64,000 bases of DNA from Candidatus Woesebacteria bacterium (GTDB lineage Bacteria > Patescibacteriota > Microgenomatia > UBA8517): the NCBI GenBank assembly GCA_016432525.1, contig CP066693.1, positions 30,017 to 94,016 of the forward strand, written 5' to 3'. A program made the translations under genes and the position numbers. The notes below the pieces were generated by a model. It had not been told where the DNA came from, did not search any database, and saw only the letters and a list, made by a program, of their open reading frames with translations. Below are positions 21,656 to 63,132 of the stretch, one piece after another. Within the stretch, counting starts at the first letter, position 1; each line of letters begins with the position of its first letter.

Positions 21656-21687
<32 letters not shown>

Positions 21688-22526: not shown

Positions 22527-22585
<59 letters not shown>

Positions 22586-23156
22586 ATGAACGACACACTT
22601 CCTTTCAAACTTAAGTTAGATTTAGAGGCCTTAGCTGTGAGTCTGGATTCTTTTCCTTTAGTCGCATCAGCTTAGCCCGATGCGGCTGTCTAGTCGCCCA
22701 TATTTCAAGTTATTCGGAGTTTGATTGAATCAAATTGCTTGCGCTCTCTGACCCATCCAGTGCTCTACCACCCTGAAATTTTTGACGACCACGGTCCCTA
22801 TAGACCTTTCGGGGAGAACCAGCTATCTCCGAGTTCGATTGGCATATTACCGCTATCCACAAGTCATCCGATGTTATTGCAACAACAACCGGTTCGGGCC
22901 TCCTCCTGTATTTCTACAGGACTCACCCTGCTCATGGCTAGATCACTCGGTTTCGGGTCTATTCTAAGCTACATAATTGTTCGGGCTATTCACCCTAGCT
23001 TTCACTTTGCCTTCTCCCGCTAAACGGGATTAAGCTGCAGCATAAAATAACTCGCCGGTTCATTCTTCAATAGGCACGAGATCACCCCCATCGCTGAGAG
23101 CTCTCTCGGTTTGTCCGCAAACAGTTTCAGGTTCTATTTCACTGAGCGTTCCGCTC

Positions 23157-23198
<42 letters not shown>

Positions 23199-23844
23199 CG
23201 CACCCTTATTTAGTCTTGGAGGATGGTTCCCCCGGATTCCCACAGAGTATGTACTCCATGGTACTTGGGATACTTCTAGAGGTTTTTTTGATTTCGCATA
23301 CGAGGCTTTCACTCTCTATGGCTTGATATTCCAAAAAATTCTGCTATCGCAAAAACTCTCATATTAAAGTCCCGCAACCCCTTCGTGATGCAAGCATCAC
23401 GAAAGTTTAGACTGTTACCATTTCGCTCGCCGCTACTTCGGTAATCTTTGTTAATTTCTCTTCCTCACCCTACTTAGATGTTTCAGTTCGGGTGGTTCCC
23501 TCCATACACCTTAGTAATTCCGATAAATCGAAATATTTGGGGCATAGGTCCCCGATAAATCGAGGGGGTTTTCCCATTCGGACATCGCCGGATCAAAGCT
23601 TCGTGGCAGCTCCCCGGCGCGTTTCGCGCGCCATGTGCGTCCTTCTTCGGAAGATGCGACCTAGGCATCCACTGTCTGCGTTAGTATTAAACTGCGACCT
23701 TTCTCTTCAGATGTCAAAGTACAAACCATAATTATTAGTTATCCGTAAATAAGCTCTAACTAAAGTAAAGCCAATTTACCAATAACCAATCAATCTTGTG
23801 GACCGTTCTGTCCAGCTCTTTTTTAATGTATTCACGACCTTAAG

Positions 23845-23918
23845 TGGACCTGAGCGGGATCGAACCGCTGACCTCATCATTGCAAATGATGCGCTCTATC
23901 CAGCTGAGCTACAGGCCC
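23845..23918 (-). tRNA. tRNA-Ala (anticodon TGC).
   Basis: Reverse complement GGGCCTGTAGCTCAGCTGGATAGAGCGCATCATTTGCAATGATGAGGTCAGCGGTTCGATCCCGCTCAGGTCCA. G3:U70. Anticodon loop TTTGCAA. It occupies the canonical spacer position 5' of the 23S. Confidence 0.9.
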
Positions 23919-24162
23919 TCGACCTGTCGCCTTAGGCGACCGTTTTGGCCAGCTGAACTATCGGCCCGTAAATAAAATGTGCAACAAAAAACCGACACTA
24001 GGTCGGTCATCCGATACAAGCCACCCCAAAAAGGGAGTTGCGCTTATTAAAAATTATTAAAAAAAATTCCTTTGCTCATCAATAATTCAATCGGATACGT
24101 TACCTAAAATTAGGTTAAGGCAAATTATATATTTATTAAAGCTAATAGTCAATTAGTATTTG

Positions 24163-24234
24163 TGGGCGCGCATGGGATCGAACCATGGACCTCTTTCTTA
24201 TCAGGAAAGCGCTCTACCACTGAGCCACGCGCCC
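24163..24234 (-). tRNA. tRNA-Ile (anticodon GAT).
   Basis: Reverse complement GGGCGCGTGGCTCAGTGGTAGAGCGCTTTCCTGATAAGAAAGAGGTCCATGGTTCGATCCCATGCGCGCCCA. Anticodon loop CTGATAA. Canonical Ile–Ala spacer tRNA pair. Confidence 0.9.
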
Positions 24235-24326
24235 AAGCTCAACTAGTTTACCTCAAATTGGCCTTAAACTCAACGAACATGCTATAATAGACCCATAATC
24301 CGCAGTTTGACAGAAAGGAAACGGGT

Positions 24327-24638
24327 ATGTTCAGAGATTTTGGTGATAGTAGAACCAGAACCAACCGTCCAATTTTCAGTTCTAACCAAATTAAAAATGT
24401 TTCTGAGCTCAAAAGAGGAATGAAAGTGCTTGTGTGTTCAAGTCTTAAAAACCATAAAAGCTACGTTGCCATCTTAACAATCAGCCCAGACCAAAACGAA
24501 AAAGGAGAATGGTTTATACATTACAAAAGAGAAGAAGACAAGATCGGGCTGGAAAGTCGCACTTTCCTTTGCGACCACAGCGTTGTTTCTTACGAAGACG
24601 GTAGATGGAACAACGCCAACTGGTTAGAAAAGATTTGA
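24327..24638 (+). CDS. Hypothetical protein (103 aa) encoded within the rRNA spacer region on the opposite strand.
   Basis: ORF with an upstream purine-rich stretch (acagaaaggaaacgggtATG). I recognise no motif. Confidence 0.4.
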   Translation: MFRDFGDSRTRTNRPIFSSNQIKNVSELKRGMKVLVCSSLKNHKSYVAILTISPDQNEKGEWFIHYKREEDKIGLESRTFLCDHSVVSYEDGRWNNANWLEKI

Positions 24639-24643
24639 TTTTT

Positions 24644-24681
24644 GCCCCTCTAAAGAGGAAAACTTTCTCTTCTAGAGGGGC
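24644..24681 (+). promoter_or_regulatory. Perfect 9-bp-stem hairpin immediately upstream of a TATAAT-like box and the 24702 start codon.
   Basis: GCCCCTCTA-aagaggaaaactttctcttc-TAGAGGGGC followed by tcgTATATAATacaattagtATG. It may act as a terminator for the upstream ORF and/or an operator or leader structure. Confidence 0.3.
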
Positions 24682-24701
24682 TCGTATATAATACAATTAG
24701 T

Positions 24702-26975: not shown

Positions 26976-27192
26976 TAAAAATGTATTAGAGATAAACGGC
27001 AAACCTCTCCTTTGCAGATGAGCGAAAATCGGTGCTTACTCGTCAATTGAAGGCCGTAAGTCTCCGAGGAAGAAGTTTGATGCATAAATTGCATAAAATG
27101 TATTCATCAAACACCTCAAACTTCTTCCTCTCCTTTTTTTAAAAAACTTTAAAATACTCCCATAGTCAACAAATAACTGGAGGTACCTTAAA

Positions 27193-27696
27193 ATGTCCAA
27201 GTTAGTCATGGCAATTGCCATATTCACGTCAATCTTTTTCGTATCGCTACCAATTCACGCGCAGGAAAATCTAAATGTTACAGTTTCTGCATCAGAGCTT
27301 CCACAAACAGGAACAAAAATTCTCGCAACAATGAATAATGGAATCAGCTTCGCGTTCGTCTCAAAAGACGAAAGTGGAGGGTGTGTCCAAATTCGTTGGT
27401 CAAACATAGCTATAAAATGCTTTGACAGAAGCACCTTGGAAAAAATTGTGATAACAACTATTCCATCTGGAGAAACACAGTATTTGAGTTTCTCCATAGT
27501 TGTCTTTAGAAAAGGAAACCTAGCTAAAGGAATCGATAGTATTTCTTCAGAAACCAAGCTGACAGAACTCGTCAAAGGCATCAAAAACCTCTTTAAAAAC
27601 GTAGCAGAATTGCTTGAAGCAAGAGATATTCATTGTATTGCAACTGCGGCTGCAGAAACTAAATCGGTCACCTTAGACATTTGGACAGAAATATAG
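27193..27696 (+). CDS. Secreted hypothetical protein (167 aa).
   Basis: A good ribosome-binding site (ctggaggtacc) 7-8 nt upstream. Signal peptide MSKLVMAIAIFTSIFFVSLPIHAQE. A terminator-like hairpin follows directly. Confidence 0.5.
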   Translation: MSKLVMAIAIFTSIFFVSLPIHAQENLNVTVSASELPQTGTKILATMNNGISFAFVSKDESGGCVQIRWSNIAIKCFDRSTLEKIVITTIPSGETQYLSFSIVVFRKGNLAKGIDSISSETKLTELVKGIKNLFKNVAELLEARDIHCIATAAAETKSVTLDIWTEI

Positions 27697-27705
27697 AATA
27701 AACCA

Positions 27706-27753
27706 AAAACCCGCTTTCAAGACGAGATTGTTCTCATCCCAAAAGCGGGTTTC
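27706..27753 (+). terminator. Inverted repeat after the 27193..27696 gene.
   Basis: AAACCCGCTTT-caagacgagattgttctcatccca-AAAGCGGGTTT followed by ctctttg. An 11-bp stem with a long loop and a weak T tract. Confidence 0.4.
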
Positions 27754-27999
27754 TCTTTGACCACCAAGACCATGACTGAAAGTGTGACTCGGTTATTTTC
27801 CTTAAATCAAAAAGACTTAAGGATAGCCTTAACCGTTGTCTAAAAGACTGGGTGTAAAAATTCACACTCCTTAGAAAGGAGGTGATCCATCCCCACCTTC
27901 CAGTAGGGATACCTTGTTACGACTTAATCCTCATCGCTGGTTTCAACTTCCTCCGATTCAATCGAAGTTCGGCTGCCCCCAACTTTGCTGACTTGACGG

Positions 28000-28877
28000 A
28001 TTGCACTTCATTGAAGTTATCGTGCGTTCCCAATCACATCAATGTGACGTCTGGTTTCTGTCCAGACTCCCGGCGAGCGGCTTTCCCGCACCGGGCGAGC
28101 CATAATGCCTATTCATTGAAAATTTCAGTCCTTTAATATATTCCAACTCTTTCGAATTAAGTTTCCTAATATCTTGTCTGCCTTTTACTATTCCAGCTAT
28201 TTTTCGAAAAGCTTCAAAACTTTTCGCTTTATAACCTAATAGCTTATATTTCTGAAAAAACGGGATAATAACATTATAGATATCGTCTCGTTTTGTTACT
28301 TCAAAAACAAAAGCAGGAAGTCGACCATCTCTAGCCGAACTTTTCTGATATACAGTTCCAATTCTAAAAAATTTCTGGACTTTAAAAAGTAAAGTTTTGT
28401 TTCCTTCTGCCTGAGCAATAAAAAATCTTAGATCAATTCTAAAATCTTTTCTCAAACTTACTAAAAAACACCCTTCTCCTTCTGTAAATCCAACAATATA
28501 TAAAGCTGAAAGCATTACGTATTTCCCTTCAATAATTACAATTTCAGTGTAACGAATATTACCCGAAAATGTCAATACCTACTATGGAAATGCTGACTTC
28601 CTAAAAAGCAATTACTTCAATCTTTTTAGGATCTCCCAGGGTCATTATGTTCTCTCTTCCTAGCATGAATGATGGGCTTTTTAAATCGACTTCCTTCCGA
28701 CCGCCCGGCGAAAGTCGTGCGAGCCTTTTTGATATCATCCCTGCTATTTGCCTCAAGCCCTCCAACCATATCAGTTACCCAATATGGTCTGCTTATTTTT
28801 TGGCTACTTGGTAGGATTTCAACCTACTAGAGGACATAACTGCCTGGCGCGTTGTTACCTAAATCTATATTACTATA
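28000..28877 (-). mobile_element. Intron in the 16S rRNA inserted within the conserved TGACGG^GCGGTGTGTAC block (near E. coli position 1395-1400); it carries a LAGLIDADG ORF.
   Basis: The rRNA match stops at …acttgacgg (27999) and resumes at ggcggtgtgtacaag (28878). The intervening sequence holds ORF 28039..28575 plus about 300 nt of structured non-rRNA sequence. Confidence 0.7.
28039..28575 (-). CDS. LAGLIDADG-family homing endonuclease encoded in the 16S intron.
   Basis: Motif VGFTEGEGCF near the probable true start (MLSALYIVGFTEGEG). About 160-178 aa. Confidence 0.85.
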   Translation of the reverse strand: MTFSGNIRYTEIVIIEGKYVMLSALYIVGFTEGEGCFLVSLRKDFRIDLRFFIAQAEGNKTLLFKVQKFFRIGTVYQKSSARDGRLPAFVFEVTKRDDIYNVIIPFFQKYKLLGYKAKSFEAFRKIAGIVKGRQDIRKLNSKELEYIKGLKFSMNRHYGSPGAGKPLAGSLDRNQTSH

Positions 28878-30366
28878 GGCGGTGTGTACAAGACCTGAGA
28901 ACGTATTCACCGGAGTATAGCTGACCTCCGATTACTACCAATTCCGCGTTCATGAGGGCGAGTTGCAGCCCTCAATCCCCACTGAGAAGCCGTTTTTGGG
29001 ATTAGCTCCAGATTACTCTTTGGCAACCCATTGTCGGCTCCATTGTAGCATGTGTGTCGCCCAAGGTATAAGGGCCATGCTGACTTGACATCATCCCCAC
29101 TTCCTTCCCGCACTAGGCGAGATAGTATCCCATGGATATATAACATGGGAAAGGGGTTGCGCTCGTTACCCCACTTAAGGGAACACCCCACGGCACGAGC
29201 TGACGACAGCCATGCAACACCTGTTGCCCCTTTTTTAATTACTTAAAAATCAGTCCATATTTCTACAGACCTAAAGAGGGCAATGTCAAACCTTGGTAAG
29301 GTCCTACGGTTCGTCTCGAATTGAACCACATGCTCCACTGGTTGTGCAGGTCCCCGTCAATTCCTTTGAGTTTTAACCTTGCGGTCGTACTCCCCAGGCG
29401 GCTCGCTTAACGCGTTAGCTTACGGAACTGAATCTTACGATCCAATCCCTAGCGAGCATAGTTTACGGCTAGGACTACAGGGGTCTCTAATCCCTTTTGC
29501 TCCCCTAGCTGTCGTTCCTCAGCGTCAAAAAATTCCTAGTTACCTGCCTTCGCCCTTGGAGTTCCTATTGGTATCAACGGATTTCACCCCTACACCAATA
29601 GTTCCAGTAACCCCGAAATATTTCAAACCAGTTAGTATTATCCCCCTTCCCGAGGTTGAGCCCCGGTCTTTAAAGAATAACTTAACAAGTCGCCTACGAA
29701 ACGCTTTACGCCCAGTAAATCCGGATAACGCTTGTGCCCCACGTATTACCGCAGCTGCTGGCACGTGGTTAGCGGGCACTTATTCTACTAATTATCTCTA
29801 ATTAATCAAAAGAGGTTTACGATCCGAAGACCTTCATCCCTCACGCGGTGTCGCGACGTCAGACTTTCGTCCATTGCGTACGATTCCTAGTTGCTGCCAC
29901 CCGTAGGTGTATGGGCCGTGTCTCAGTCCCATTCTGGGGGGTCATGCTCTCACACCCCCTACCCGTCGTAGGTTTGGTAGGCCATTACCCTACCAACTGC
30001 CTGATGGGAAATAGGCTCCTCCATCGGCGCGCAGTTATGCGCTTTTATCCGAAGATGTCATCCGGTATTAGCTCGTCTTTCGACGAGGTATTCCGAACCA
30101 TTGGGTAGATTCCTATTTTATACTCAGCCGTTCGCGACTAACTGTATTGCTACAGCTCGTCCCACTTGCATGCCTAAGGCACACCGCCAGCGTTCATCCT
30201 GGGCCAGGATCAAACCCTCAAAAAAGTGACGGAAACAAACTAAATAAAATTAAATAGCGTGTTCCATCGGAAACGCTTCCAGTCATGTCTTGATTGTCAA
30301 AGTTCTGTGTTATGAAGTGTTGTTACCCAAAAGGGAAGTTAACGCTTAGATTTTTTTGAATAAAAA

Positions 30367-34030: not shown

Positions 34031-34621
34031 TTAGAACCCTAATTTTTCATTTACAAGTATCAAATATGCTCTATCTTTTTGAATCTCACGATTTATAATT
34101 AATAGTTTGCTCACAAAACTTCCAGTATTAATATTATGAGCTTTATTTAGTCTCACACTTTCCAAAGGAAGTACGTAATCATAAATTCGTTTTATTCCCC
34201 CATTAACATCATTAACTAATTTTTGAATTCCAACAATCCATACAACATGATTTGCTCCATATACATATGCAGGAAGTTGTGACCCAGTATTTGAAGCAAT
34301 CAAAACTTTTCCATCGTAAGTTAAGGCATGCACACTCCCAATTGCCCAATCAGGGGAACCACCCATCTTTTTCATTTCCCACTTTTGACTTTTAGGATCC
34401 ATTTGAGAAAATTTCTTTCTTACAGATTCATATTCATCGGATTCATCAATTACATCTTTTATTCCAGTCTCCGTTAAAGTCACAGAAGACATAGTAAAAA
34501 CTTCAGCTTTTTTAGGGATAATTTCTAAAACTTTCTTTTTTGCTTCCTCTTTATTCTCAACAAAAAAGGACTCAATTCCATTTGCCTTTAATGCATCAAT
34601 TACTTTTTTGTACTCTTGCAT
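34031..34621 (-). CDS. LUD-domain (YkgG/LutC-like, DUF162) protein.
   Basis: Overall pattern …VLIASNTGSQL…HVVWIVGIQKLVNDV…AYLILVNEKLGF resembles lactate-utilisation/LUD-domain proteins. Tentative. Confidence 0.45.
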   Translation of the reverse strand: MQEYKKVIDALKANGIESFFVENKEEAKKKVLEIIPKKAEVFTMSSVTLTETGIKDVIDESDEYESVRKKFSQMDPKSQKWEMKKMGGSPDWAIGSVHALTYDGKVLIASNTGSQLPAYVYGANHVVWIVGIQKLVNDVNGGIKRIYDYVLPLESVRLNKAHNINTGSFVSKLLIINREIQKDRAYLILVNEKLGF

Positions 34622-35040
34622 TATTTCTTAAGCTCTCTTTTTTTAACAAGTTTATAAACCGGAACAATTTCCCTCAGCTCTCCATCTTCTCCTTCAAATT
34701 CATTAGCACCAGTCATTCTCTGAAACTCTCTCAAATGATATGAAAGAGCGTCCTGATGTTCTTTCAATTCATCTTTCAAAATCTTGATTTTTTCAGAAAC
34801 AGCTTTCGCCTCAGGTCTATTAAGTATCTGCTTTTTAATTTGTGCTTTTAGTTGGTTTGCTTTCTTTGCAGCTTGTGAATGTTCAGCATAAGCCAGATCA
34901 TTATCAAAAATTGAGTCAAGCATTTCTTTTTGAGGCTGGATTTCTTCTTTTACTCTATCTATCTTAGCAATACGATCATTTATTGCTCCTTCAACTCTCA
35001 TTAAATCATCTGCTTTCACTGAAGGCTTATCATTATCCAT
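34621..35040 (-). CDS. Coiled-coil hypothetical protein (139 aa).
   Basis: A highly charged, heptad-like sequence. Confidence 0.4.
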   Translation of the reverse strand: MDNDKPSVKADDLMRVEGAINDRIAKIDRVKEEIQPQKEMLDSIFDNDLAYAEHSQAAKKANQLKAQIKKQILNRPEAKAVSEKIKILKDELKEHQDALSYHLREFQRMTGANEFEGEDGELREIVPVYKLVKKRELKK

Positions 35041-35258: not shown

Positions 35259-36467
35259 TTACAGCTCGATAGCAAATCGGGGTGAGAAAGAGGTGTCTGT
35301 TGCTGATACTGATTGAATCTTGTCATAGATAAACATCTTGATACCTACATGACCCGAGTTACCACCGCTTGTATCCCATCCCCAGAAGTATTCCATCCCT
35401 CGTCCATCTTTTTTTCTGATCCTGTATTCAAATGCGTAAGGCTCAATAAGTCGAGCTACCCCATCATAAACCATTCTAATCAGATTCTGCGTTCTGCCCG
35501 CAGCAATGATCACATTTCTTTCTGCCGACGGGAAGTAACTGAAGACTGATGATGCACCAAAACCTTTTGTCAATCGAGCATATCCACCACCATAATTCAC
35601 TGGAGTGGTAGCAAACGAAGGAGCAGGAATGAAAGCGAACAGTCCTGTGACCAGATCTTTGAATCCAGTAACAGCACGATCGAAATCAAAAAGGCTGAAT
35701 ACAGGGGCGATTATCTCCTGCCAGAAAGGGCGATACTCCTCAACTGGAACATTGAGTAGCAGATCTTTGGCAGTATTAGGATTGGATTCATAGATAGTCT
35801 TTTTCAAAAAGGTGCTAATCACCTCAGGACGATTGACCTGATACTCATTGCTGATGAGAATCGAATACACCAAATCAAATAAATCCGTGACCTTCCTCCT
35901 TTGAAGTGCTGCATTCATTTTCGAAGCGAGTATTTCTTCAAGCTTGTGACACCGAATCACTGCCGTGCACTTATCCTCATCTGAGTATGGATGAATCAAG
36001 GAGCGTGATTGTACGGGAAGAAAAATCTTATCGAATGTTGTCACATCTAACTGGATTTTGAGTACGATTTCTTCCTCGCCATAAAAACTCTTGAAGTAAA
36101 TCCTCGCCTCATAAACCTGTGTCTGTTCATTGTCGAATCCAGGCTTTTTGTCGATTCGCGTTTTGTCGGTCTCGAATGATACACCAGATCGATCTTGAGC
36201 ATAGTTACACACTTCCTGTAGCTGCCTACTCAAATCCGATGGATCAACTGCATCAAGGACAGAGAAATCCAAATCTTTCGAAAAACGAGTATTGTGTAAG
36301 TAGGTCTTTCTGAGCGCGTTACCACCTTTGAGGATCAGTTTCTCACCTAATCCAGACTCTCCATAGATTCCCGATAATAACCATCCAAAAACATAGTCCC
36401 TCTGTAAATTGGAGGTGTTGATCTGGAACTCCTTAGCTTTCTGCTCGATCTCTGAGTTCTGTATCAT
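35259..36467 (-). CDS. AbiEii/AbiGii-family nucleotidyltransferase-like protein (type IV TA toxin-like). It has a long C-terminal extension and no obvious AbiEi partner.
   Basis: LKGGNALRKTYLHNTRFSKDLDFSV matches the AbiEii/DUF1814 N-terminal nucleotidyltransferase signature (GG[TN]AL…R[FY]SxDLDF). First gene of the higher-GC block. Confidence 0.6.
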   Translation of the reverse strand: MIQNSEIEQKAKEFQINTSNLQRDYVFGWLLSGIYGESGLGEKLILKGGNALRKTYLHNTRFSKDLDFSVLDAVDPSDLSRQLQEVCNYAQDRSGVSFETDKTRIDKKPGFDNEQTQVYEARIYFKSFYGEEEIVLKIQLDVTTFDKIFLPVQSRSLIHPYSDEDKCTAVIRCHKLEEILASKMNAALQRRKVTDLFDLVYSILISNEYQVNRPEVISTFLKKTIYESNPNTAKDLLLNVPVEEYRPFWQEIIAPVFSLFDFDRAVTGFKDLVTGLFAFIPAPSFATTPVNYGGGYARLTKGFGASSVFSYFPSAERNVIIAAGRTQNLIRMVYDGVARLIEPYAFEYRIRKKDGRGMEYFWGWDTSGGNSGHVGIKMFIYDKIQSVSATDTSFSPRFAIEL

Positions 36468-38383: not shown

Positions 38384-38611
38384 TCAGAAAGGGAGAAGTT
38401 CAGACGAGCTCACCTTCAGGGCTTTTGCAATCTTGTAGAGGGTTCTGATGGTTGGATTTCGTTCACCTCTTTCAATCATCCCGATGTATGTCCTGTGCAT
38501 CGAAAGTTTTGCAGCCAGATCCTCTTGAGATACTCCAGCCTCCTTTCGAATCTTTTGCATCTTGTGCCCGAACTTCTCGAGCATATCTCGATGAGTGATA
38601 GGTTTACCCAT
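38384..38611 (-). CDS. XRE-family helix-turn-helix transcriptional regulator (phage cI/Cro-like repressor).
   Basis: KIRKEAGVSQEDLAAKLSMHRTYIGMIERGERNPTIRTLYKIAKAL is a canonical XRE HTH. It is divergently oriented to 38655..38987. Confidence 0.8.
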   Translation of the reverse strand: MGKPITHRDMLEKFGHKMQKIRKEAGVSQEDLAAKLSMHRTYIGMIERGERNPTIRTLYKIAKALKVSSSELLPF

Positions 38612-38654
38612 ATCCTAATCGTAGAGACTGTGAGTATCATTCTCGACATACTCC

Positions 38655-38987
38655 TTGTATGCAAATGTGCTACAATGTAGATGTTTTCCTATGAGCAATA
38701 TTCGTATTTTTGTAGTAGTAGTTGTGATCATCCTGGTGGGATATTTCACCTGGGATACAGTTGTTAAATTAGATGCAGATGTGACCCTCAACAGTGGTGG
38801 TCAAAGCAGCTATGCTCAGCAGTATTTCGGCACTGGGTACACCAAAGAGCAAATGATCAAGCTGAAGAAAGATACTTCAGATTCAATCTTGAGGCGCGGG
38901 ATCTTTCTGGATGCAGCCACACTTCTAACTGGAGCATTCGCACTCCTGGCAACTGGTAAGTTACAATCAAAGAGGAAGGAATCATGA
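38655..38987 (+). CDS. Small membrane protein (110 aa), divergent from the XRE regulator.
   Basis: N-terminal transmembrane helix (IFVVVVVIILVGYF) and a second near the C-terminus. Confidence 0.4.
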   Translation: MYANVLQCRCFPMSNIRIFVVVVVIILVGYFTWDTVVKLDADVTLNSGGQSSYAQQYFGTGYTKEQMIKLKKDTSDSILRRGIFLDAATLLTGAFALLATGKLQSKRKES

Positions 38988-39153
38988 GAAAGAAGTTGAA
39001 ATCAAAGCAGAAAGTTACAAGGCAATCAAATGCACAACGAGGGCTCAAACTCAAGGAAGGGCAATACTACGCTGTATTTGTGCCGAAGAAACACTGATCT
39101 GCTACAATACAATTAACTCCTCCACTTCGATTGATCCTCCTGTTGAAAAGATT

Positions 39154-39504
39154 ATGGTTATGATGCTCAAACCTCGACACCAGAAGTTCGTTCGGGCGTT
39201 CGTTGAGAATGGTGGCAACGCTACCAGAGCTGCGCAAGTAGCTGGTTATGGTAGTGGTGATGGGTATTCGCGTCTTGCGGGACATCGACTGATAACAAAC
39301 GATAACATCAAAAACTTGGTTGTGGCTGAAATGGAAGCTACTGGACTTGGTTTGAAATCACTTGTCAGAAGGCTCAGACAGGTCATTTTTCATCCTCAAG
39401 AGCTTGATGGTATCTCAGTTACAGCTATGAACGCTATCGGAAAATGGCAAGGATGGAATAAACCCTTGACAAAAGTGGACTTGATAGTTCATAGTTTTGA
39501 ATAA
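39154..39504 (+). CDS. Phage terminase small-subunit-like protein.
   Basis: KPRHQKFVRAFVENGGNATRAAQVAGYGSGDGYSRLAGHRLITNDNI matches the Terminase_2/TerS (P27-family) N-terminal HTH region. Confidence 0.6.
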   Translation: MVMMLKPRHQKFVRAFVENGGNATRAAQVAGYGSGDGYSRLAGHRLITNDNIKNLVVAEMEATGLGLKSLVRRLRQVIFHPQELDGISVTAMNAIGKWQGWNKPLTKVDLIVHSFE

Positions 39505-39696
39505 TAAGTAAATAACGCTTCGTTCATTTTGAATAAGGAAAAAGCGTTGATCTCGGTAATGACCTAAGGACAAGCAGATAGCTGTCAAAGGTACAAGGCA
39601 GACCGCCCCGACAATCAGAACCGAGTGAGCCGAAACCCTCAAATTGAGCAGTACCAGCCGAAAGGCTGACTGTAAGATCTGAGGATTTTTTATTTT

Positions 39697-39722
39697 GCAG
39701 CCTTTCATGGCTGCTTTTTTTA
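39697..39722 (+). terminator. Intrinsic terminator after the TerS-like gene.
   Basis: GCAGCC-tttcatg-GCTGC-TTTTTTTat. Confidence 0.5.
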
Positions 39723-39734
39723 TGGCTCACTCGT

Positions 39735-39944
39735 ATGGTCACACCAGAAGCGTTGCAATCATTCAAAGAAATATGCAAGAGAAAGGGCATCAAAATTGAT
39801 GACCAGACCGCTCTTGACTATGCTGAAAGACTCCTGGGACTCATAAGCGCTATCTATCGACCAATTTCGAAGGATAGTCCGTTTTTGAAAGGAGGTGTGT
39901 ATGCTCCAGCAAAATCCAAAACCAGAAGAAAAACTCAGGACTGA
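39735..39944 (+). CDS. Hypothetical small protein (69 aa).
   Basis: ORF only. RBS aaggagg is present near its 3' end for the next gene. Confidence 0.3.
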   Translation: MVTPEALQSFKEICKRKGIKIDDQTALDYAERLLGLISAIYRPISKDSPFLKGGVYAPAKSKTRRKTQD

Positions 39945-40087
39945 TTTGAGCTTGGCTGAGCTGAAGTTGATTGACTTCATCCGAAAGCTCAAATGGGGTT
40001 CGGCTGAGATCACTGTCCAAAACTCACAGCCTGTGATCGTTAAAGTAGCTGTGCAGACAGTCAAATTGACTTGAGGAGCAAAAGCCT

Positions 40088-41083
40088 ATGCAAAACGGAG
40101 AAAACCGAAGCATGAACGGATTCACACAAGTAGAGAACTTCCTTATCGATGAGGTTATGCCTCGTCTAAGGCGACCTACAGCCTGGAGACTGATCACTGC
40201 GATCCTAAGGGACTCTGTGGGTTGGCAGCGCGAGTGGACTGAATGGCATACACGAAAATGGTGTGCAGAAAAAGCAGGGTGTTCAGTGGAAGCAATCACT
40301 GATGTTTGGAATGAGACAGTGCCAAAGATTCTCCTCATGCAAGATGATCGATTCAAAATGCTCACAACGACTGCTGAACGACAGCATGCGGGCAACAGAA
40401 GGAGGCTTACTCGAATGAAAATCAATCCACAGATTCACAAAACATACTTGAGTATTTTTTCCTCAAGTGACTATCACCCAAAGAAAAAATCCACAAGTAC
40501 TCGAGGGAAAAGTGCCGACACTCAAAGAAAGGATGATAGAAAGGAGAATGATCCTGAAGGATCAGCTGAACTCCGTTCTGACATATCAGATAAGCAGAAA
40601 AAACTACTACAACTGGAGGCGTTACTCTCCATAGATGATATTCAGTTTCTGAAATCGCTACTCGATAACTACCCCGAGCTTGATGCTGTCAAAGTAGCCA
40701 CAGACGCTTCAGAGTGGATCAACGATGAAGGACGAGCAAATATCGGTAGTCGAAAACACCTGATAAAAAAGTTTTTCAGCACAGCCCATGAGAAGCTCTT
40801 GAAGCAAAAGCACATGTATGGGCTCAATCAGGCGATGATTTTTCTGGACGGATTCTATCGAATCTATCCTGAACGAAAACCCAAAAAGTTGAAAACTCTG
40901 CTACGACAAGCAAAATTCTACATTGAGGTAGTTGGAAAAGGATACACTAATGAGCAAATGCTTGAGACAGCAAAATGGATGACTTCTATGCTCCATTGGG
41001 CGAATCGATTTGGGTTTGAGGATGTCATCACCGTCTTACCTGCTTATTGTGTGGAAAAAAGAAAAAGGAGGTTGCAAACATGA
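40088..41083 (+). CDS. Putative replication-initiation / replisome-organiser protein (phage or plasmid type).
   Basis: N-terminal wHTH-like segment ENFLIDEVMPRLRRPTAWRLITAILRDSVGWQREW resembles phage replication protein / DnaD-like N-domains. Basic, low-complexity middle section. Tentative. Confidence 0.4.
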   Translation: MQNGENRSMNGFTQVENFLIDEVMPRLRRPTAWRLITAILRDSVGWQREWTEWHTRKWCAEKAGCSVEAITDVWNETVPKILLMQDDRFKMLTTTAERQHAGNRRRLTRMKINPQIHKTYLSIFSSSDYHPKKKSTSTRGKSADTQRKDDRKENDPEGSAELRSDISDKQKKLLQLEALLSIDDIQFLKSLLDNYPELDAVKVATDASEWINDEGRANIGSRKHLIKKFFSTAHEKLLKQKHMYGLNQAMIFLDGFYRIYPERKPKKLKTLLRQAKFYIEVVGKGYTNEQMLETAKWMTSMLHWANRFGFEDVITVLPAYCVEKRKRRLQT

Positions 41084-42900
41084 ATGCTCGTTTGAAAAGA
41101 ATGACCAAAAGAGGTAGTATGTATGATACAAGGAGTATGAAAAATTCAACTTCGATAGGAGAAATCCGATGGGCAGAATACAATCGTCGTTCATCTGACG
41201 AGGGGAAGAAAAAGCAGCTACTTTCAAATAAGTCACAGACTGATGAGCTCGCGAAAAGATATCCCGAAAACGACTTCAAGCGCAAGCATCATATTCAAGA
41301 GTCAGATAGTGCGTTCCATCCGAATAACAGACCAAGGTTCGAACAGTTAATGCAACTTATTGAAGCTGGTGAGATCAACGGCATCATCTGTTGGCATCCT
41401 GACAGGCTCTCAAGGAACTCAATTGATGCAGGACGCATCGTTCATTTGCTCAAGATTGGACAACTCAAGGAGATCAAGTTTGGCTCATATCACTTCGAAA
41501 ATACACCTGAAGGAAGGATGTTTCTGCAGTTAGCTCTGAGTCAGTCAGAATACTACTCGGACAAGTTGTCTGTAGATGTCAAACGAGGCAACACAACACA
41601 CCTGGAGAACGGACAGTGGCTCGGTGCTGCTCCACCAGGCTACCTCAACCTTATTGATCCACTTACAAAGCAAAAATATGTTGATCTCGATCCTGAGAGA
41701 TTCCCACTTCTGCAAAAAGCTGGCAAGCTTTTTCTCACTGGTCGCCATCGAGCAATGGAAGTCTTGGATATTCTCAATAATGAGTGGGGATACCGCAGTC
41801 GAAAAACCGAGAAACAGGGTGATAAACCAATGAGCAAAAGTGGTTTCTACAAGTTCCTTTCAAATCCTTTCTACTTTGGTCAAATGATAAGATCCGAGGG
41901 TGAGTTCACGGGTAGTCACAAGTCAATGTTCACCGAGTCAGAGTTCGATCGAATCCAGATTCTACTTGGTAGAAAGGGACGACTTAGGAACGATGTTCAT
42001 AAGTTTCCTTTCAAAGAGTTACTCAAGTGTGGAGAATGTGGTGGGTCAGTTACCTGTGAGGAAAAATGGCAGATAATTTGCTCGAACTGCAAAACCAAGT
42101 TCCACAAGGGCAAAAAGACCGATCAGTGCCCACAGTGCCATACTTTGATTGAGGCAATGGTCGATCCGACCATTCTCCACTATGTGTATTATCACTGCAC
42201 GAAGCGGGTGAACAGAAACTGTACTCAGGGTTGTATTTCAAAAGGTGATCTTGAAAAAACTGCAGATGTGGAACTTCAAAAGTTTGAGATCGATGAGACC
42301 TTCAGAGACTGGGCTATCGAGCATTTGAATAAGCTCAATAAGATTGAGGTCACTGATCGGGAAAAAATTAGAGGATCACTCAAAGTTGCATACGATGATT
42401 GTGTCAAAAAGATTGATAACTTACTCTCGTTGAAGATCTCAGTACAGAACACTGATGGTAGTGCGATTTCAGAAGCAGAGTACCTTAGCCAAAGACGGTC
42501 ACTACTGGAAGAAAAAGAGAGCCTTCTGGAACGACTCAATGATGTAGATCAGAGACAAAACACCTGGCTTGAACTTTCAGAGCGCACTTTCAATTTTGCT
42601 CTCTATGCTCGTCACTGGTTCGCCTACGGAGACTTACTACAAAAAACTCAGATACTTGCTGGACTTGGTTCGAACCTTCTGATACAGGACAAAAAGTTAT
42701 TGATAGATCGGCACAAACAGCTTTTTCTAATTGAGAAAGGGAAAAAGGAAGCAGAGAATCTTGGCTACTCGTTCGAACCTACAAAAAAGCCCGATTTGAC
42801 AACACAATCGGCTCCTTCTGAAGTCATTCGTTCTGCTTGGCTGCGGGACAGGGATTCGAACCCCGGTACCAAGATCCAAAGTCTTGTGTCCTACCACTAG
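41047..42900 (+). CDS. Large serine recombinase (resolvase/invertase catalytic domain, recombinase domain and zinc ribbon). The start is probably the second Met near 41080.
   Basis: Catalytic YNRRSSDEG (Y-x-R-x-S-S). Recombinase-domain segment LSRNSIDAGRIVHLL. Zinc ribbon CGECGGSVTCEE…CSNCKTKF…CPQCH. The last roughly 20 codons overlap tRNA-Gln on the opposite strand. Confidence 0.85.
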   Translation: MCGKKKKEVANMNARLKRMTKRGSMYDTRSMKNSTSIGEIRWAEYNRRSSDEGKKKQLLSNKSQTDELAKRYPENDFKRKHHIQESDSAFHPNNRPRFEQLMQLIEAGEINGIICWHPDRLSRNSIDAGRIVHLLKIGQLKEIKFGSYHFENTPEGRMFLQLALSQSEYYSDKLSVDVKRGNTTHLENGQWLGAAPPGYLNLIDPLTKQKYVDLDPERFPLLQKAGKLFLTGRHRAMEVLDILNNEWGYRSRKTEKQGDKPMSKSGFYKFLSNPFYFGQMIRSEGEFTGSHKSMFTESEFDRIQILLGRKGRLRNDVHKFPFKELLKCGECGGSVTCEEKWQIICSNCKTKFHKGKKTDQCPQCHTLIEAMVDPTILHYVYYHCTKRVNRNCTQGCISKGDLEKTADVELQKFEIDETFRDWAIEHLNKLNKIEVTDREKIRGSLKVAYDDCVKKIDNLLSLKISVQNTDGSAISEAEYLSQRRSLLEEKESLLERLNDVDQRQNTWLELSERTFNFALYARHWFAYGDLLQKTQILAGLGSNLLIQDKKLLIDRHKQLFLIEKGKKEAENLGYSFEPTKKPDLTTQSAPSEVIRSAWLRDRDSNPGTKIQSLVSYH

Positions 42901-42911
42901 ACGATCCCGCA
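42841..42911 (-). tRNA. tRNA-Gln (anticodon TTG).
   Basis: Reverse complement TGCGGGATCGTCTAGTGGTAGGACACAAGACTTTGGATCTTGGTACCGGGGTTCGAATCCCTGTCCCGCAG. U1:A72 and G73 (glutamine identity). Anticodon loop CTTTGGA. Closely related to the tRNA-Glu at 46080..46152. Confidence 0.8.
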
Positions 42912-43057: not shown

Positions 43058-43333
43058 TTACCCGTTGCGCCTAGCCTGGGTCTTGAACTCAACGATTTTC
43101 GTTGACTCCTCCACCTTCGGCTTGCTCAAAACATTGCCAGCATGGCCATCAAACAGGACAGCTGTGACCAAACTCATGTCGATCACAATGTCGTGCTGAC
43201 TCCTAGCTCTTTCAGCAACTGCGGCTGCATTGGCCCCTACAGGAACTTCTACCGTGACACGGTTTGCTCCGTATACAACGGTAACGGTAACAGCAACCTT
43301 GAGGGGCGCGGGCTCAGTAATCCGACTCGTCAT
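43058..43333 (-). CDS. Ubiquitin-like beta-grasp protein (91 aa) ending …RRNG.
   Basis: Its secondary-structure pattern aligns with ubiquitin: KVAVTVTVVY / RVTVEVPVG / helix AAAVAERARSQ / LVTAVLFDGHAGNVL (compare LIFAGKQLEDG) / KIVEFKTQARRNG (compare LHLVLRLRGG). Last gene of the E1–JAB operon. Confidence 0.6.
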   Translation of the reverse strand: MTSRITEPAPLKVAVTVTVVYGANRVTVEVPVGANAAAVAERARSQHDIVIDMSLVTAVLFDGHAGNVLSKPKVEESTKIVEFKTQARRNG

Positions 43334-43412: not shown

Positions 43413-44225
43413 TCAAACCAAAGCATCTGAAATGGATCTCAAAGAAGGCCCCCACAAACCATTCTGGTTTGCGTACACAGCACCTTCAAAAGAGTATGCA
43501 GTAATTTTGTCAGCCAAGTATGCGATAAACACTTGAAACATTAGTGTTGCAGTAGAAATATTAGAAGCAAGTGTTTGTTCTGCACCTTCATCTGTCGCAG
43601 CACTACAGCTCGCTTCATTCCTATTGATGGTTCCATTCAAAAGAACTCCTCTCTCTGCCTTAGCCAGTTCTGAAATCTCAGGATGCAAAGTTAAAAGACT
43701 AGGGGTTATATCTTTTCCTCCACGTCTTATGTGAATACTTACATCCCAATCCAGTTTGTTTGTTCCTCCGTTGACTACACACACATTTCTCAATGATTGT
43801 GCATATTCAGACACAACAGACCTAGGATAGTAAGCGTCAACACAAAGAAAGATCAAGGAACTTTCTTTAACAACATCCGAAACAGGAACTGTTTCTACTC
43901 CATGAATCCTATTATGATCAGTACGAGATACAACCATTTTAGGTATAGCTTCTAATCCCTGAAGCCTCCCCTCAAAACGCATTGTATATGTACCAACCAG
44001 GCTATTCGCTTTATTTCCAGGACGGGCAAAAAACTGTCTTGCACGATTTTTGTCTTCAAAACGATCGTGATCAACAACCAAAAAACGCCGTTTTATAAGC
44101 CCTCTTTCATGAAACATATACTGTGTTAGAAAAAGGGCAAGCCAACTCCCATTACCTCCAGCACCAATTAAGACAATCGAATCGGGAATCATTGATTTTC
44201 TCCTCTCCGAACATACCATAACCAA
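43413..44225 (-). CDS. Minimal E1-like activating enzyme (ThiF/MoeB family). The start is probably Met-12 near 44192.
   Basis: Rossmann nucleotide loop IVLIGAGGNGSWLALFL. Conserved Asp/Arg (LVVDHDRFEDKNRARQ). Candidate catalytic Cys in EASCSAATDEG. Confidence 0.75.
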   Translation of the reverse strand: MVMVCSERRKSMIPDSIVLIGAGGNGSWLALFLTQYMFHERGLIKRRFLVVDHDRFEDKNRARQFFARPGNKANSLVGTYTMRFEGRLQGLEAIPKMVVSRTDHNRIHGVETVPVSDVVKESSLIFLCVDAYYPRSVVSEYAQSLRNVCVVNGGTNKLDWDVSIHIRRGGKDITPSLLTLHPEISELAKAERGVLLNGTINRNEASCSAATDEGAEQTLASNISTATLMFQVFIAYLADKITAYSFEGAVYANQNGLWGPSLRSISDALV

Positions 44226-44881
44226 TCTTCTGGAAAGTAAGAAATCTGATCAGGCATATCAATCAAAAAATCCGGGCTAAGAATAAATCTAAGCCCACAT
44301 ATTGTGACTGACACGCTCATATTAACTGGACCATCAAATACCCTGCCGAGTGTAATGTATATTCCATCAACGCCAGTTTCATTAAAATCATCCTCAAGAC
44401 TATGGCCCGCAAGCATTATTCCATGAGAGTGAATAATCCCAACTGCCAAAAATCCTTCTGGTATCGGCTCAATCTCCCTATGCTGGACCGAAGCGAAACT
44501 TACCTTCTGATGTAGTGGCCTAAAATCCCACTTGTCCTCCTCCGGAGAGTAAAGAATTTGAAGCATTGCCTCACTTTGAAATTTTTCATACACCTTTCTA
44601 AAAAACCCTTTAGCCATCAATATAAGACCATACGGGATCTTCGAGAAAGAAGTGTAGATTTTCTGTTCAAAATTAAGAAGGTCCTCCGGTTGACAAGATT
44701 CAATTATTTTTCTGTTTGTTGGAGCTACAATTTCAATCCAAGTTTCATCTCCTTGTTTTATGCAACCCCAAAGAAAATTGCCGTTCTTGGCAACAACATA
44801 AAGTAAACGTTTGTTGGTTGGAAATTCAAAATTTCGGTCATAAAACACAATCCTCTCACCCATGTAAGTCATCTTAACCAA
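44189..44881 (-). CDS. JAB/MPN (JAMM) metallopeptidase (deubiquitinase-like).
   Basis: Full JAMM motif HSHGIMLAGHSLEDD (HxHx7Sx2D) with upstream Glu. About 230 aa. Its ends overlap both neighbours, indicating an operon. Confidence 0.75.
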   Translation of the reverse strand: MVKMTYMGERIVFYDRNFEFPTNKRLLYVVAKNGNFLWGCIKQGDETWIEIVAPTNRKIIESCQPEDLLNFEQKIYTSFSKIPYGLILMAKGFFRKVYEKFQSEAMLQILYSPEEDKWDFRPLHQKVSFASVQHREIEPIPEGFLAVGIIHSHGIMLAGHSLEDDFNETGVDGIYITLGRVFDGPVNMSVSVTICGLRFILSPDFLIDMPDQISYFPEDWLWYVRRGENQ

Positions 44882-45201
44882 TCCTCCTCAGGAAAATAAT
44901 CCTGACCTCGATGTCTCATCTGATTTAAATATGGCTGAATTAAAGAATCCGCCTCTTTTCTAGTACGATATCCTAAAACAAACTCTTTATCACTAGATGA
45001 TACTTTCTCTATCATCGCATAAGCGATTGCAAGATATATCTCATCCTCTGAAAAACCAGGGAATCTCATAAGAATCGCTTTGACCATTCGTTTAGTTATC
45101 CATTCAAATAACCAATATTCCCCGATTACATCTATGATATTTCGAAGTTTATTCTTAACTGTTAAGTCAGTGTATAACCACTCTTTCAGTTTAATCGACA
45201 T
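44869..45201 (-). CDS. Hypothetical protein (110 aa) within the Ubl/E1/JAB operon.
   Basis: ORF overlapping both neighbours. No Cys. I recognise no motif. Confidence 0.4.
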   Translation of the reverse strand: MSIKLKEWLYTDLTVKNKLRNIIDVIGEYWLFEWITKRMVKAILMRFPGFSEDEIYLAIAYAMIEKVSSSDKEFVLGYRTRKEADSLIQPYLNQMRHRGQDYFPEEDWLR

Positions 45202-45203
45202 TG

Positions 45204-45956
45204 TTAACCTCCTATGTTACGGTCTAATGCTTCTGTAACTGTCAAGTCCGCAGGAAACCAACCAATAGAAGTTATAAACCTTCTCCACGACTTCTTTCTA
45301 CTTTTCCTCACCCAATCCCCAAAATTTTTGGGGTGGTTTCTAGCAGAATGCATATTTCCTTCAAGAAGGTCATCTAAGTCAGAGTTATAGATGCTATTCC
45401 AAAATATATCCACAGCCTGGCCAAGTTTACCTATTAGAGTTCTTTGTCTTGATGCTTCACTAAAATTCATGCAAAGTCTCTTTCCATGGTTGTTGGGTAA
45501 ATTTGCATAAAAGAGTGGATCATTATAAGAACCAATCGCTTGGTTTCTATAATACACAGCTGCGGAAACGTCACCACAAGAGTCTTCTTGAACCACAAAA
45601 ACTACATATGGAAACGCAAGAGGCTTCGCTACCCAAACTAAGGAACTTACTCCAAACAAGCTAGATCCTAGTTTAATATTCCTTATTGAAGGCTCAAATT
45701 CAATCATCACCCTTTTCCAGTTGCTACTTTTTCTAATTGCTACAATTCGTCCACCACTAAAAGTTGGAAGAAAAAAGTCGTTGATTGCATTAAGCCGTAT
45801 AGCGGTAAGCACATCTTCAAACCTGTATTGCGATCCGTCAACATTTGCCTCAATACGAAATCCCCCTTCTGTTTCTTTAAGAACTACACCTCCTAATTCA
45901 TAGAGAATTCCATCGTTGATTAGATACGGTTTATTCTTACCCATCTTTAACTCCAT
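45204..45956 (-). CDS. Operon-leading 250-aa protein ending in Gly-Gly. It has a possible degenerate E2 (UBC-like) active-site context; the role is speculative.
   Basis: C-terminus …TEALDRNIGG*. The segment LPNNHGKRLCMNF loosely resembles the E2 HPN…G…C motif. First gene of the five-gene operon. Confidence 0.45.
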   Translation of the reverse strand: MELKMGKNKPYLINDGILYELGGVVLKETEGGFRIEANVDGSQYRFEDVLTAIRLNAINDFFLPTFSGGRIVAIRKSSNWKRVMIEFEPSIRNIKLGSSLFGVSSLVWVAKPLAFPYVVFVVQEDSCGDVSAAVYYRNQAIGSYNDPLFYANLPNNHGKRLCMNFSEASRQRTLIGKLGQAVDIFWNSIYNSDLDDLLEGNMHSARNHPKNFGDWVRKSRKKSWRRFITSIGWFPADLTVTEALDRNIGG

Positions 45957-45998
45957 TTCATTATTTTAACGAGCGATATAGAAATTATATAAAAAAAG

Positions 45999-46070
45999 TG
46001 AGCCCGACAGGGATCGAACCTGCGACATTCTCCTTAAAAGGGAGCTGCTCTACCGCTGAGCTACGGGCTC
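45999..46070 (-). tRNA. tRNA-Lys (anticodon TTT).
   Basis: Reverse complement GAGCCCGTAGCTCAGCGGTAGAGCAGCTCCCTTTTAAGGAGAATGTCGCAGGTTCGATCCCTGTCGGGCTCA. Anticodon loop CTTTTAA. Confidence 0.85.
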
Positions 46071-46079
46071 AAATTTCAG

Positions 46080-46152
46080 TGACCCCACAGGGATTCGAAC
46101 CCTGGTACTCAGGCTGAAAACCTGATGTCCTAGGCCACTAGACGATGGGGCC
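46080..46152 (-). tRNA. tRNA-Glu (anticodon TTC).
   Basis: Reverse complement GGCCCCATCGTCTAGTGGCCTAGGACATCAGGTTTTCAGCCTGAGTACCAGGGTTCGAATCCCTGTGGGGTCA. Anticodon loop TTTTCAG. Confidence 0.85.
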
Positions 46153-62112: not shown

Positions 62113-63132
62113 TTAACCCCCTAACTCTATCTTTTCAACTCCTTTAAACTCGGGCACATAATGCGGCTCAGATGTCGTAATAATTACTTGAAGTCCTGAT
62201 GAATTTTTCATAACCAATTCGCGGTGGGCTGAATCAAGTTCAGAAAATATATCATCTAAAAGTAAAGTTGGATTTTGAAAAGTCATAGATTTTACATAAG
62301 AAAGTTCGCAAAGTTTAATCCACAAAACTCCCATTCTTTGCTCTCCCCGAGAACCAAATATCGACAAATCCTTACCATCCTTTACAAATTTAAAATCATC
62401 TCTATGAGGTCCCACCAAAGTAGTACAAGCTGCAATTTCTTGGTTTTTATAAGTCTCAAGTCGTGCCTCACTTATTACACTTTTGTCGTATTCAAGGCTA
62501 AACACCTGACCATCCAAAGGAATATAATTATTTGCATATTCAATAAACTCCTCTCGCTTCTTCGTCAAAAAGTCTCCATTTTTAATAAGAAGTTGGTTCC
62601 AAAATAAAAGCTGCGAAGGCGAAACTCCTTCCTCTCTTATTCTAAAAAGCAGCTTGTTTCTATTCCTCACTCCTTTTTCATACGAAAGAAGGCATCTTCT
62701 ATACTCCCGGTCCACTTGTGATAAAACCATATCCAAAAAATTTCTTCTTAAAGAGGGTTGATGTGTCACCAAATCCAAATCCCAAGGCCCAAACAAAACT
62801 GCTTTAAAATTCCCAGAAAAATCAACTAAACGTTTATTGACTCCATTAACACGAAGTCGCTTCCTAAATTCAATCTTTGAAATCAAAACTTCCAAATCCA
62901 CATTAGTAGTTTTAGAGTCTATTCTTGCAAGATCCTCTCCTTCCTTTATCATTTCGTTTTCTTTAAAGGCTTTAAAACTTTTCCCCGTCGAAGTCAAATA
63001 AATTGCCTCCAAAATATTAGTTTTTCCAGACGCATTAGGAGCAATAATCACGGAAATCTCAGGGGAAAATTTAAACTGTTTCTTAGAAAAATTACGAAAG
63101 TTGAAAAGAAGTAAAGAATTGATCACGCCCAA
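62113..63132 (-). CDS. recF: DNA replication and repair protein RecF.
   Basis: Walker A IIAPNASGKTNILEAIYL and the SMC-like signature region. 339 aa. Confidence 0.85.
   Translation of the reverse strand: MGVINSLLLFNFRNFSKKQFKFSPEISVIIAPNASGKTNILEAIYLTSTGKSFKAFKENEMIKEGEDLARIDSKTTNVDLEVLISKIEFRKRLRVNGVNKRLVDFSGNFKAVLFGPWDLDLVTHQPSLRRNFLDMVLSQVDREYRRCLLSYEKGVRNRNKLLFRIREEGVSPSQLLFWNQLLIKNGDFLTKKREEFIEYANNYIPLDGQVFSLEYDKSVISEARLETYKNQEIAACTTLVGPHRDDFKFVKDGKDLSIFGSRGEQRMGVLWIKLCELSYVKSMTFQNPTLLLDDIFSELDSAHRELVMKNSSGLQVIITTSEPHYVPEFKGVEKIELGG

Follow-up and report, generated by a model that had tools for sequence, protein, structure and literature searches.

Related cassettes and the Woesebacteria operon

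The type 6d operon of Iyer, Burroughs and Aravind (2006), described from proteobacteria, Firmicutes, cyanobacteria and Bacteroides, combines a ubiquitin-like protein (Ubl) bearing a conserved terminal glycine with a JAB protein that carries an N-terminal domain, an E1-like protein, an E2-like protein and a small alpha-helical protein; its E2-like component possesses a conserved cysteine, lacks the canonical histidine and has an 'absolutely conserved downstream His' (PMC1779556). The Bil operon encodes Ubl, E2, JAB and E1 proteins, of which the E2 is thought to work without an E3 and the JAB enzyme both matures and removes the Ubl, whose conserved glycine may have a short extension behind it (PMC10557695, PMC11601596). 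In the Bub system (6E/DUF6527), the E1 and E2 are devoid of a catalytic cysteine, the linkages are Tyr/Ser oxyesters and the protease is a DUF6527 serine protease (PMC11601596). The present analysis concerns a cassette in a 64,000-nucleotide stretch of a Candidatus Woesebacteria genome (GCA_016432525.1, contig CP066693.1, positions 30,017 to 94,016; hereafter the window), and in particular its first gene, g1, located on the minus strand at 45956..45204.

As the initial annotation had recognised, g1 heads a Ubl/E1/JAB operon, in which five closely spaced genes follow one another in one direction on the minus strand, in the order g1 (E2-like), g2 (110 aa), g3 (JAB), g4 (ThiF/E1) and g5 (91 aa). 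Stop and start codons overlap as ATGA at the g2/g3 and g3/g4 junctions, and a GGAG(G) motif is found 5-10 nt before every start codon of the operon; these junction sequences are indicative of translational coupling. The product of g1 is in all likelihood the E2, i.e., the Ubl-conjugating enzyme, of a cassette composed of E2, small accessory protein, JAB, E1 and Ubl, and its terminal Gly-Gly is expected to play no modifier role. This assignment is based on the invariant or nearly invariant Cys and Pro-Asn residues, on the matches of its homologues to the Prok-E2_D and PRTRC_B models, and on the strict synteny with E1, JAB and Ubl genes. Among the options initially put forward for this gene, the same observations favor that of an E2-like enzyme.

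Judged by its sequences, the operon is a diverged relative of the predicted PRTRC and "6d" Ubl-E1-E2-JAB cassettes, of a kind common in bacteria of the candidate phyla radiation (CPR), in DPANN archaea and in predicted phage contigs. The likeness to PRTRC is apparent from the stand-alone homologues of g1, half of which match Prok-E2_D (PF14460) and a third of which match PRTRC_B (TIGR03737), models of predicted prokaryotic E2s from the ParB-related, ThiF-related cassette, and from the partner proteins, whose best curated matches are PRTRC_A (JAB) and PRTRC_ThiF (E1). In contrast, the scores of g3 (25.6 bits vs a cut-off of 101.8) and g4 (18.4 vs 144.75 bits) are low, g1 itself does not reach E<=1 with either E2 model, and g2 and g5 have no PRTRC match. 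Neither ParB nor the PRTRC C-F proteins were detected among the scanned neighbours of the cassette. With no ParB nearby and scores far under the cut-offs, full PRTRC membership (TIGR03734-03742) was rejected.

Type 6d, compared by its description and not by the 2006 sequences, agrees with g1-g5 in the five-part gene content, in the conserved C-terminal glycine of g5, in a g1 cysteine without the canonical histidine, in the N-terminal extension of g3 and in the presence of an extra small protein, g2. The two differ in the downstream histidine, which is conserved only in the closest subfamily of g1 (His208, alignment A6) and present in just 6 of the 45 E2s from the genome loci described below, and in their hosts, since the g1 family occurs in CPR, DPANN and phage contigs. 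The Bil system (BilABCD) shares with the cassette the same four predicted activities in one operon; however, Bil systems have a large multidomain E1 (IAD-AAD-CYS), whereas g4 is a single ThiF domain of 259 aa, and the Bil E2 shows a Cys...His arrangement in place of the NLPN-x6-C of g1. PADLOC returned no Bil model match for the operon genes, only weak CBASS E1-E2 matches. Taking into account the missing model matches and the wrong E1 architecture, Bil membership was discarded. Bub, too, is a diverged cassette of bacterial Ubl, E1 and E2 genes that comparative genomics brought to light; membership was dismissed because the E1 and E2 of the g1 cassette keep a conserved cysteine and the protease is of the JAMM type, and the Pfam scan of the window gave no DUF6527 match. 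With respect to eukaryotic ubiquitin-conjugating (UBC)/E2 proteins (e.g., UBE2S and UBE2D2/3), the identity of g1 amounts to 4-13%, leucine stands in the place of the His of the HPN motif, and the structural model contains two extra strands together with an N-terminal beta-domain of ~60 residues.

The g1 family and its predicted active site

The open reading frame (ORF) of g1 comprises 250 aa and ends in ...TEALDRNIGG-stop, so that the ...DRNIGG-stop terminus initially reported is indeed present. The reported length of 250 aa applies to the ORF, but the protein itself is probably shorter: its true start is probably Met5 at 45944, giving 246 aa, because a GGAG site lies 6 nt upstream of the Met5 codon (ribosome-binding context ATGGAGTTAAAGATG) and the NCBI annotation of this Candidatus Woesebacteria metagenome-assembled genome also gives 246 aa. 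The E2-like motif pointed out from the sequence, LPNNHGKRLCMNF, is confirmed at residues 153-165. It overlaps the predicted E2 active-site loop N152-L-P-N155-N-H-G-K-R-L-C162 (45471..45503, minus strand), in which Cys162 (codon 45473-45471) is the candidate thioester cysteine.

Residue conservation was evaluated in a family set of 148 representative proteins, g1 included, collected by an exhaustive phmmer search at E<=1e-3; the counts were taken from the matched regions after alignment. Cys162 and Pro116 are present in 148/148 sequences and Asn155 in 146/148, with Trp186 and Trp215 being nearly invariant. The resulting family pattern, LAFPYV...YYRN.P...D.L..NLPN-x6-C...FW.S.FN.D, is also kept in the 43 stand-alone homologues of alignment A1, and Cys162 is found in all 45 E2s of the genome loci. 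The conservation of the cysteine motif is far above chance, whereas the Gly-Gly end of g1 is not regarded as exceeding it. Furthermore, the invariant cysteine follows the (H)PN-type loop by ~7-8 residues, as expected for an E2.

This invariance is unexpected for an inactive scaffold, and it bears directly on the possibility that g1 serves above all as a substrate or as a target of its own modification, or as a non-catalytic, UEV/RWD-like scaffold for Ubl binding, and not as a thioester-forming E2. Non-catalytic E2-fold proteins are known from prokaryotic cassettes, an example being those of type 6e, which are inactive and E2/RWD-like (PMC1779556). E2s commonly modify themselves, and the missing HPN histidine of g1 would also suit such a role. 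Nevertheless, the E1 of the cassette retains its own cysteine (Cys207 in ORF numbering) in 50 of 51 sequences, consistent with a thioester relay, and the cassette contains no other E2 candidate. A predominantly non-catalytic g1 is therefore considered unlikely, and Cys162 is better viewed as the candidate catalytic residue of an E2. For the simple conjugation target, the third option initially put forward, the results speak neither in favor nor against.

Family models connect g1 to predicted prokaryotic E2s through its homologues. The Pfam model Prok-E2_D (PF14460) is matched by 22 of the 43 stand-alone homologues (best E 2e-8), one of which, P0012, reaches 27.3 bits and thereby exceeds the gathering threshold of 25 bits; in every one of these matches the conserved cysteine falls within the matched region. 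The NCBIfam model PRTRC_B is matched by 13 of the 43.

The AlphaFold2 model of g1, computed with alignment A1, has a predicted local distance difference test score (pLDDT) of 87.4 and a predicted template modelling score (pTM) of 0.73. It starts with a three-stranded unit and a helix (residues 11-56), followed by a six-strand meander (69-137) and a further strand (147-150). After these come the NLPN loop, a short hairpin, Cys162 and a short helix (166-169), and a long helix (174-187) leads into the remaining C-terminal helices. The model thus displays the beta-meander flanked by helices that characterises the UBC fold, and the order of elements around the predicted active site (strand, PN loop, short hairpin, Cys, short helix, long helix) is also UBC-like. 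Alignment of the A1 profile with hhalign to four canonical E2 sequences, whose identities were checked (UBE2D2, UBE2L3, UBE2N), produced one local alignment, located at the active site, with a probability of 21.6%; in it, P154-N155 and C162 of g1 are paired with P76-N77 and the catalytic C85 of UBE2D2, respectively. Foldseek comparison of the model with BFVD gave four matches at probability 1.0, all of them uncharacterised proteins of uncultured tailed phages.

Several results weigh against the E2 assignment. The His of the HPN motif is replaced by Leu in g1, and g1 itself matches none of the Pfam, NCBIfam, PADLOC and PHROG models at E<=1; its tie to Prok-E2_D is consequently only transitive, since the homologues match and g1 does not. 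Prok-E2_D is, moreover, a computational prediction, and the literature search yielded no paper with a biochemical test of Prok-E2_D or PRTRC. In the structural check proposed with the initial annotation, the predicted model is confident and UBC-like, but Foldseek found no significant match to it in the PDB, and the sequence profile of the g1 family matched no PDB chain. These negative searches, together with the low hhalign probability, the six-strand sheet and the extra N-terminal beta-domain, are what would be expected if the g1 family were not an E2 at all but a cysteine-dependent enzyme of some other kind (e.g., a thiol peptidase or a transferase) that co-occurs with E1, JAB and Ubl and resembles UBC proteins only superficially. 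On the other hand, the independent Prok-E2_D matches cover the Cys region, the sole local profile alignment coincides with the active site itself, the order of secondary-structure elements around the cysteine corresponds to that of UBC, and an obligate partnership with E1 and Ubl fits an E2. Hence, there is little probability that g1 is a different cysteine enzyme, and the E2 assignment is retained.

The family is not easily reached from g1. A word-indexed homology search with g1 as query returned g1 alone, and the A1 profile returned 10 proteins; tblastn of g1 gave no match in 72,556 GenBank plasmids and no match in the GenBank phages. Many members, forming a large branch of the family, are proteins of 680-790 aa (P0012, P0019, P0022 and ~40 other library matches), whose N-terminal stretches look hydrophobic or membrane-spanning by eye and are followed by a long helical region, with the g1-like domain at ~residues 430-640.

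The terminal Gly-Gly and the operon partners

The Gly-Gly end of g1 was initially interpreted as the C-terminus of a mature modifier, possibly a Ubl carried on a large N-terminal domain. At the g1/g2 junction (...AAC ATA GGA GGT TAA CA ATG), the GGA GGT codons of Gly249-Gly250 (45207..45212, minus strand) contain the GGAGG Shine-Dalgarno site of g2 (45212-45208), which is placed 6 nt before the g2 ATG at 45201. Across the window, 16% of the GGAGG sites stand 4-10 nt before an ORF start, vs 0-6% for permuted G-rich pentamers. At the corresponding junctions of two related loci, the ribosome-binding site is formed by other codons: GGAGAGGAGAG in L004, where the E2 tail is ...QGEER, and GGGAGGGA in L005, where it is ...GRDWLR. 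The homologue from L001 (P0010; 35% identity over residues 8-236) is ~40 residues longer and, like g2, ends in ...ESEDWLD, with no glycine end.

Considering the whole family, tails ending in Gly-Gly are found in ~4 of some 255 sequences. In the library, three of the 148 sequences (g1, P0033 and P0042) have such a tail; of the 45 genome-locus E2s only those of the window and L016 do, and of the 64 viral E2s none does. The closest homologues of g1 end in EER, WLR and WLD. Conservation of the terminal Gly-Gly in homologues, a check proposed beforehand, is thus absent, with the reservation that all of the homologues share <=38% identity with g1, so that close-range conservation lies outside this comparison. 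Since the Gly-Gly is not conserved and its codons form the Shine-Dalgarno site of g2, the terminal Gly-Gly of g1 is, on this evidence, incidental, a by-product of the ribosome-binding site without a modifier role.

The alternative in which g1 itself is a Ubl, or carries one at its C-terminus, with its Gly-Gly activated by the E1 and two conjugatable proteins in the operon, would account for a protein that ends exactly in Gly-Gly and for the last ~5 residues of the AlphaFold2 model, which form an unstructured tail after a helix. It is, however, highly improbable: besides the missing Gly-Gly in all close and nearly all other homologues, the longer L001 protein and the translational function of the codons, the model of g1 is UBC-like with no beta-grasp matches, and the operon already encodes a Ubl of its own, whose terminal glycine is invariant. 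Consequently, the view of g1 as a Ubl on a large N-terminal domain is abandoned, and the two conjugatable C-termini previously proposed are reduced to one, that of the 91-aa g5. This removes the false lead of a 250-aa Gly-Gly modifier and gives g1 a specific role, with Cys162 as candidate catalytic residue.

Of the ORFs in the window that reach 150 aa (44 in all), two end in Gly-Gly, compared to ~0.2 expected. The second (62113-63132, minus strand, 339 aa) ends in ...KIELGG-stop, with a G-rich run before an ATG 9 nt past the stop, and may be another terminal Gly-Gly adjoining a downstream start. A general caution concerns tightly coupled operons in organisms with GGAGG ribosome-binding sites: a C-terminus that is Gly-Gly, or rich in Gly/Glu, can arise there as a side-effect of the signal that starts translation of the following gene.

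The candidate ubiquitin-like modifier g5 (43058..43333, minus strand, 91 aa) ends in ...EFKTQARRNG-stop. In the alignment of its family (A8), G22, F83 and the terminal G91 are invariant; a conserved C-terminal glycine in a gene located beside the E1 is what is expected of a modifier, and g5 is best read as the sole modifier of the cassette. Less favorable to this reading are the comparisons with known structures: all best matches of the A8 profile in the PDB are ubiquitin, but they are weak (single-domain E 0.01-0.2), and the single-sequence AlphaFold2 model of g5, with a pLDDT of 48, is unusable. Matches of the g5 family to ThiS/TGS are below threshold.

The JAB/JAMM metalloprotease g3 (44189..44872, minus strand, ~227 aa) possesses an N-terminal extension, and its ATG at 44872 overlaps the g2 stop. 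It matches Prok-JAB (E 0.0026) and NCBIfam PRTRC_A (E 7.8e-6), and its JAMM motif, E104...H151-x-H153-x7-S161-x2-D164, is kept in 48-49 of 49 JAB relatives. The next gene, g4 (43413..44192, minus strand), has an ATG at 44192 overlapping the g3 stop and encodes a single-domain ThiF/MoeB-type E1 that matches ThiF (1.6e-8) and, weakly, PRTRC_ThiF; the Gly-rich loop and residues D52, D54, N60, R63, D130 and R135 are conserved in 51/51 sequences. The E1, E2 and JAB proteins thus look catalytically competent from their conserved residues, and the cysteines kept in both E1 and E2 fit what a thioester relay requires.

The small protein g2 (44869..45201, minus strand, 110 aa) matches no family in Pfam, PADLOC, PHROG or NCBIfam. 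It is confined to the closest relatives (L003, L004 and L005), with its tail fused to the E2 in L001/P0010, and its C-terminus is an invariant E-D-W-L[R/H/D] (alignment A2). The Glu-Glu-Asp codons of this tail double as the GAGGAGGA ribosome-binding site of g3. Two E2 homologues have tails resembling that of g2, P0009 (...GRDWLR) and P0010 (...ESEDWLD), and the JAB protein contains FPEDWL close to its own C-terminus.

By analogy with established E1/E2 chemistry and with the Bil and CBASS precedents (PMC10557695), the following route can be inferred. The ThiF-type E1 (g4) would adenylate the C-terminal Gly91 of the g5 Ubl and probably hold the Ubl as a thioester on Cys207. The Ubl would then move to Cys162 of g1, with Asn155 of the NLPN loop possibly taking the role of the HPN Asn, and g1 would transfer it onto amino groups of the targets. 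The JAB protease (g3) would strip the tag and, in relatives whose Ubl has a short extension past GxKG, may also mature it. The small protein g2 could act as an accessory or adaptor subunit.

Related loci and genomic setting

Related loci were found by anchoring on the better-conserved E1 (alignment A7). In GTDB species genomes this gave 53 loci, distributed over many Patescibacteria/CPR groups, Woesearchaeota, Aenigmatarchaeota, Thermoplasmatales, Methylomirabilota, Planctomycetota, Gammaproteobacteria and others, and 40 of the 53 carry E2, JAB and E1 in this order on one strand. The small-protein cluster of the Ubl is present in 40 genome loci, either directly after the E1 or before the E2; these Ubls end in ...EF..xxGxKG, placed at the stop in 17 loci and followed by 1-10 residues in most others. 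Among 80 IMG/VR viral contigs, E2-JAB-E1 occurs in 62 and the full cassette, Ubl included, in 58; the Ubl family is found in 67 of the 80 viral loci, with GxKG followed by 0-2 residues in 62 of 68 viral Ubls. The viral E2 is mostly ~860 aa long, with the g1-like domain N-terminal and a ~580-aa C-terminal region behind it, and the viral Ubl has ~155 aa. For a viral-contig cassette, PHROGs yielded only a weak match of the E1 to a family of unknown function, so that the phage origin of the IMG/VR contigs is based on the classification of that collection.

The IMG/VR loci (L059-L138) lie on contigs of up to 268 kb, and many of them contain, ~1 kb downstream, a second E1-like gene of ~286 aa ending in PETGAA. 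Among genome loci, L009 (Parcubacteria) has two complete E2-JAB-E1 cassettes in tandem, and in L010 and L032 a lone JAB-E1 pair is preceded by two adjacent E2 paralogues. A classic AAA ATPase (Pfam AAA + AAA_lid_3, ~530-680 aa) adjoins the cassette in 19 of ~51 genome loci (including L010, L014, L017, L019, L024, L034, L037, L040-L044 and L051-L054), mostly co-directional with it and separated by gaps of -3 to ~400 bp; no AAA ATPase stands beside the cassette of the window. This linkage hints at a tag-and-unfold coupling.

The g1 family is large (148 clusters; the E2-JAB-E1 core occurs in 40 genome loci and in 62 IMG/VR contigs) and barely captured by current family models, and no experimental characterisation of it was found in the literature searchable here. 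Its significance stems mainly from this size, from the spread over viral and CPR/DPANN sequences and from the experimental neglect, and not from the Gly-Gly by which it was first noticed. A tentative suggestion, which we regard as doubtful, is that the family constitutes a further class of prokaryotic Ubl conjugation, distinct from CBASS-Cap2, Bil and Bub and carried largely on phages and mobile elements of CPR, DPANN and other hosts. Such a class would be defined by a minimal Cys-bearing ThiF-type E1, an NLPN-x6-C E2, a JAMM protease and a GxKG-ended Ubl. If this were the case, the AAA link in about one third of the cellular loci could reflect a primitive tag-and-unfold pathway (Cdc48/proteasome-like), or the cassette could be a phage tool for modifying host or virion proteins. 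Since Ubl conjugation in bacteria (CBASS, Bil, Bub) is being actively studied, a compact cassette of the thioester type, enriched in CPR/DPANN genomes and predicted phages, is a reasonable candidate for biochemistry.

In the window, the cassette is bounded upstream by tRNA-Lys and tRNA-Glu (45998..46152, minus strand; ARAGORN, Rfam) and downstream by tRNA-Gln (42838..42911, minus strand; ARAGORN). A probable small integrated element with a serine recombinase (~38400-42911, ~4.5 kb) lies on the far side of tRNA-Gln. It has a G+C content of 0.43 vs ~0.36 around it and a reversed GC skew, and contains a terminase-small-subunit-like ORF (39154-39504), a RepO-like ORF (40088-41083) and the large serine recombinase gene (41047-42900), the reading frame of which extends into the tRNA-Gln gene of the other strand. 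Further along, an AbiEii-type nucleotidyltransferase toxin gene is located at 35259-36467 (Pfam E 2.2e-24). The ORF directly downstream of it (34621-35040, 139 aa) has no Pfam match and may encode the partner antitoxin. The integrated element and the AbiEii gene together give the cassette a mobile or defence-flavoured neighbourhood. A search for att-like direct repeats of the flanking tRNAs gave only the similarity between tRNA-Gln and tRNA-Glu; no att repeats delimit the cassette, and nothing indicates that it is a discrete insertion.

The rRNA genes of the window are loosely arranged within 19740-30225. The 16S gene (28829-30225) aligns over only 1397 nt to the full-length model, ~4.6 kb separate it from tRNA-Ile/tRNA-Ala and the 23S gene (20963-23694), and the 5S gene is located ~1.1 kb beyond the 23S.

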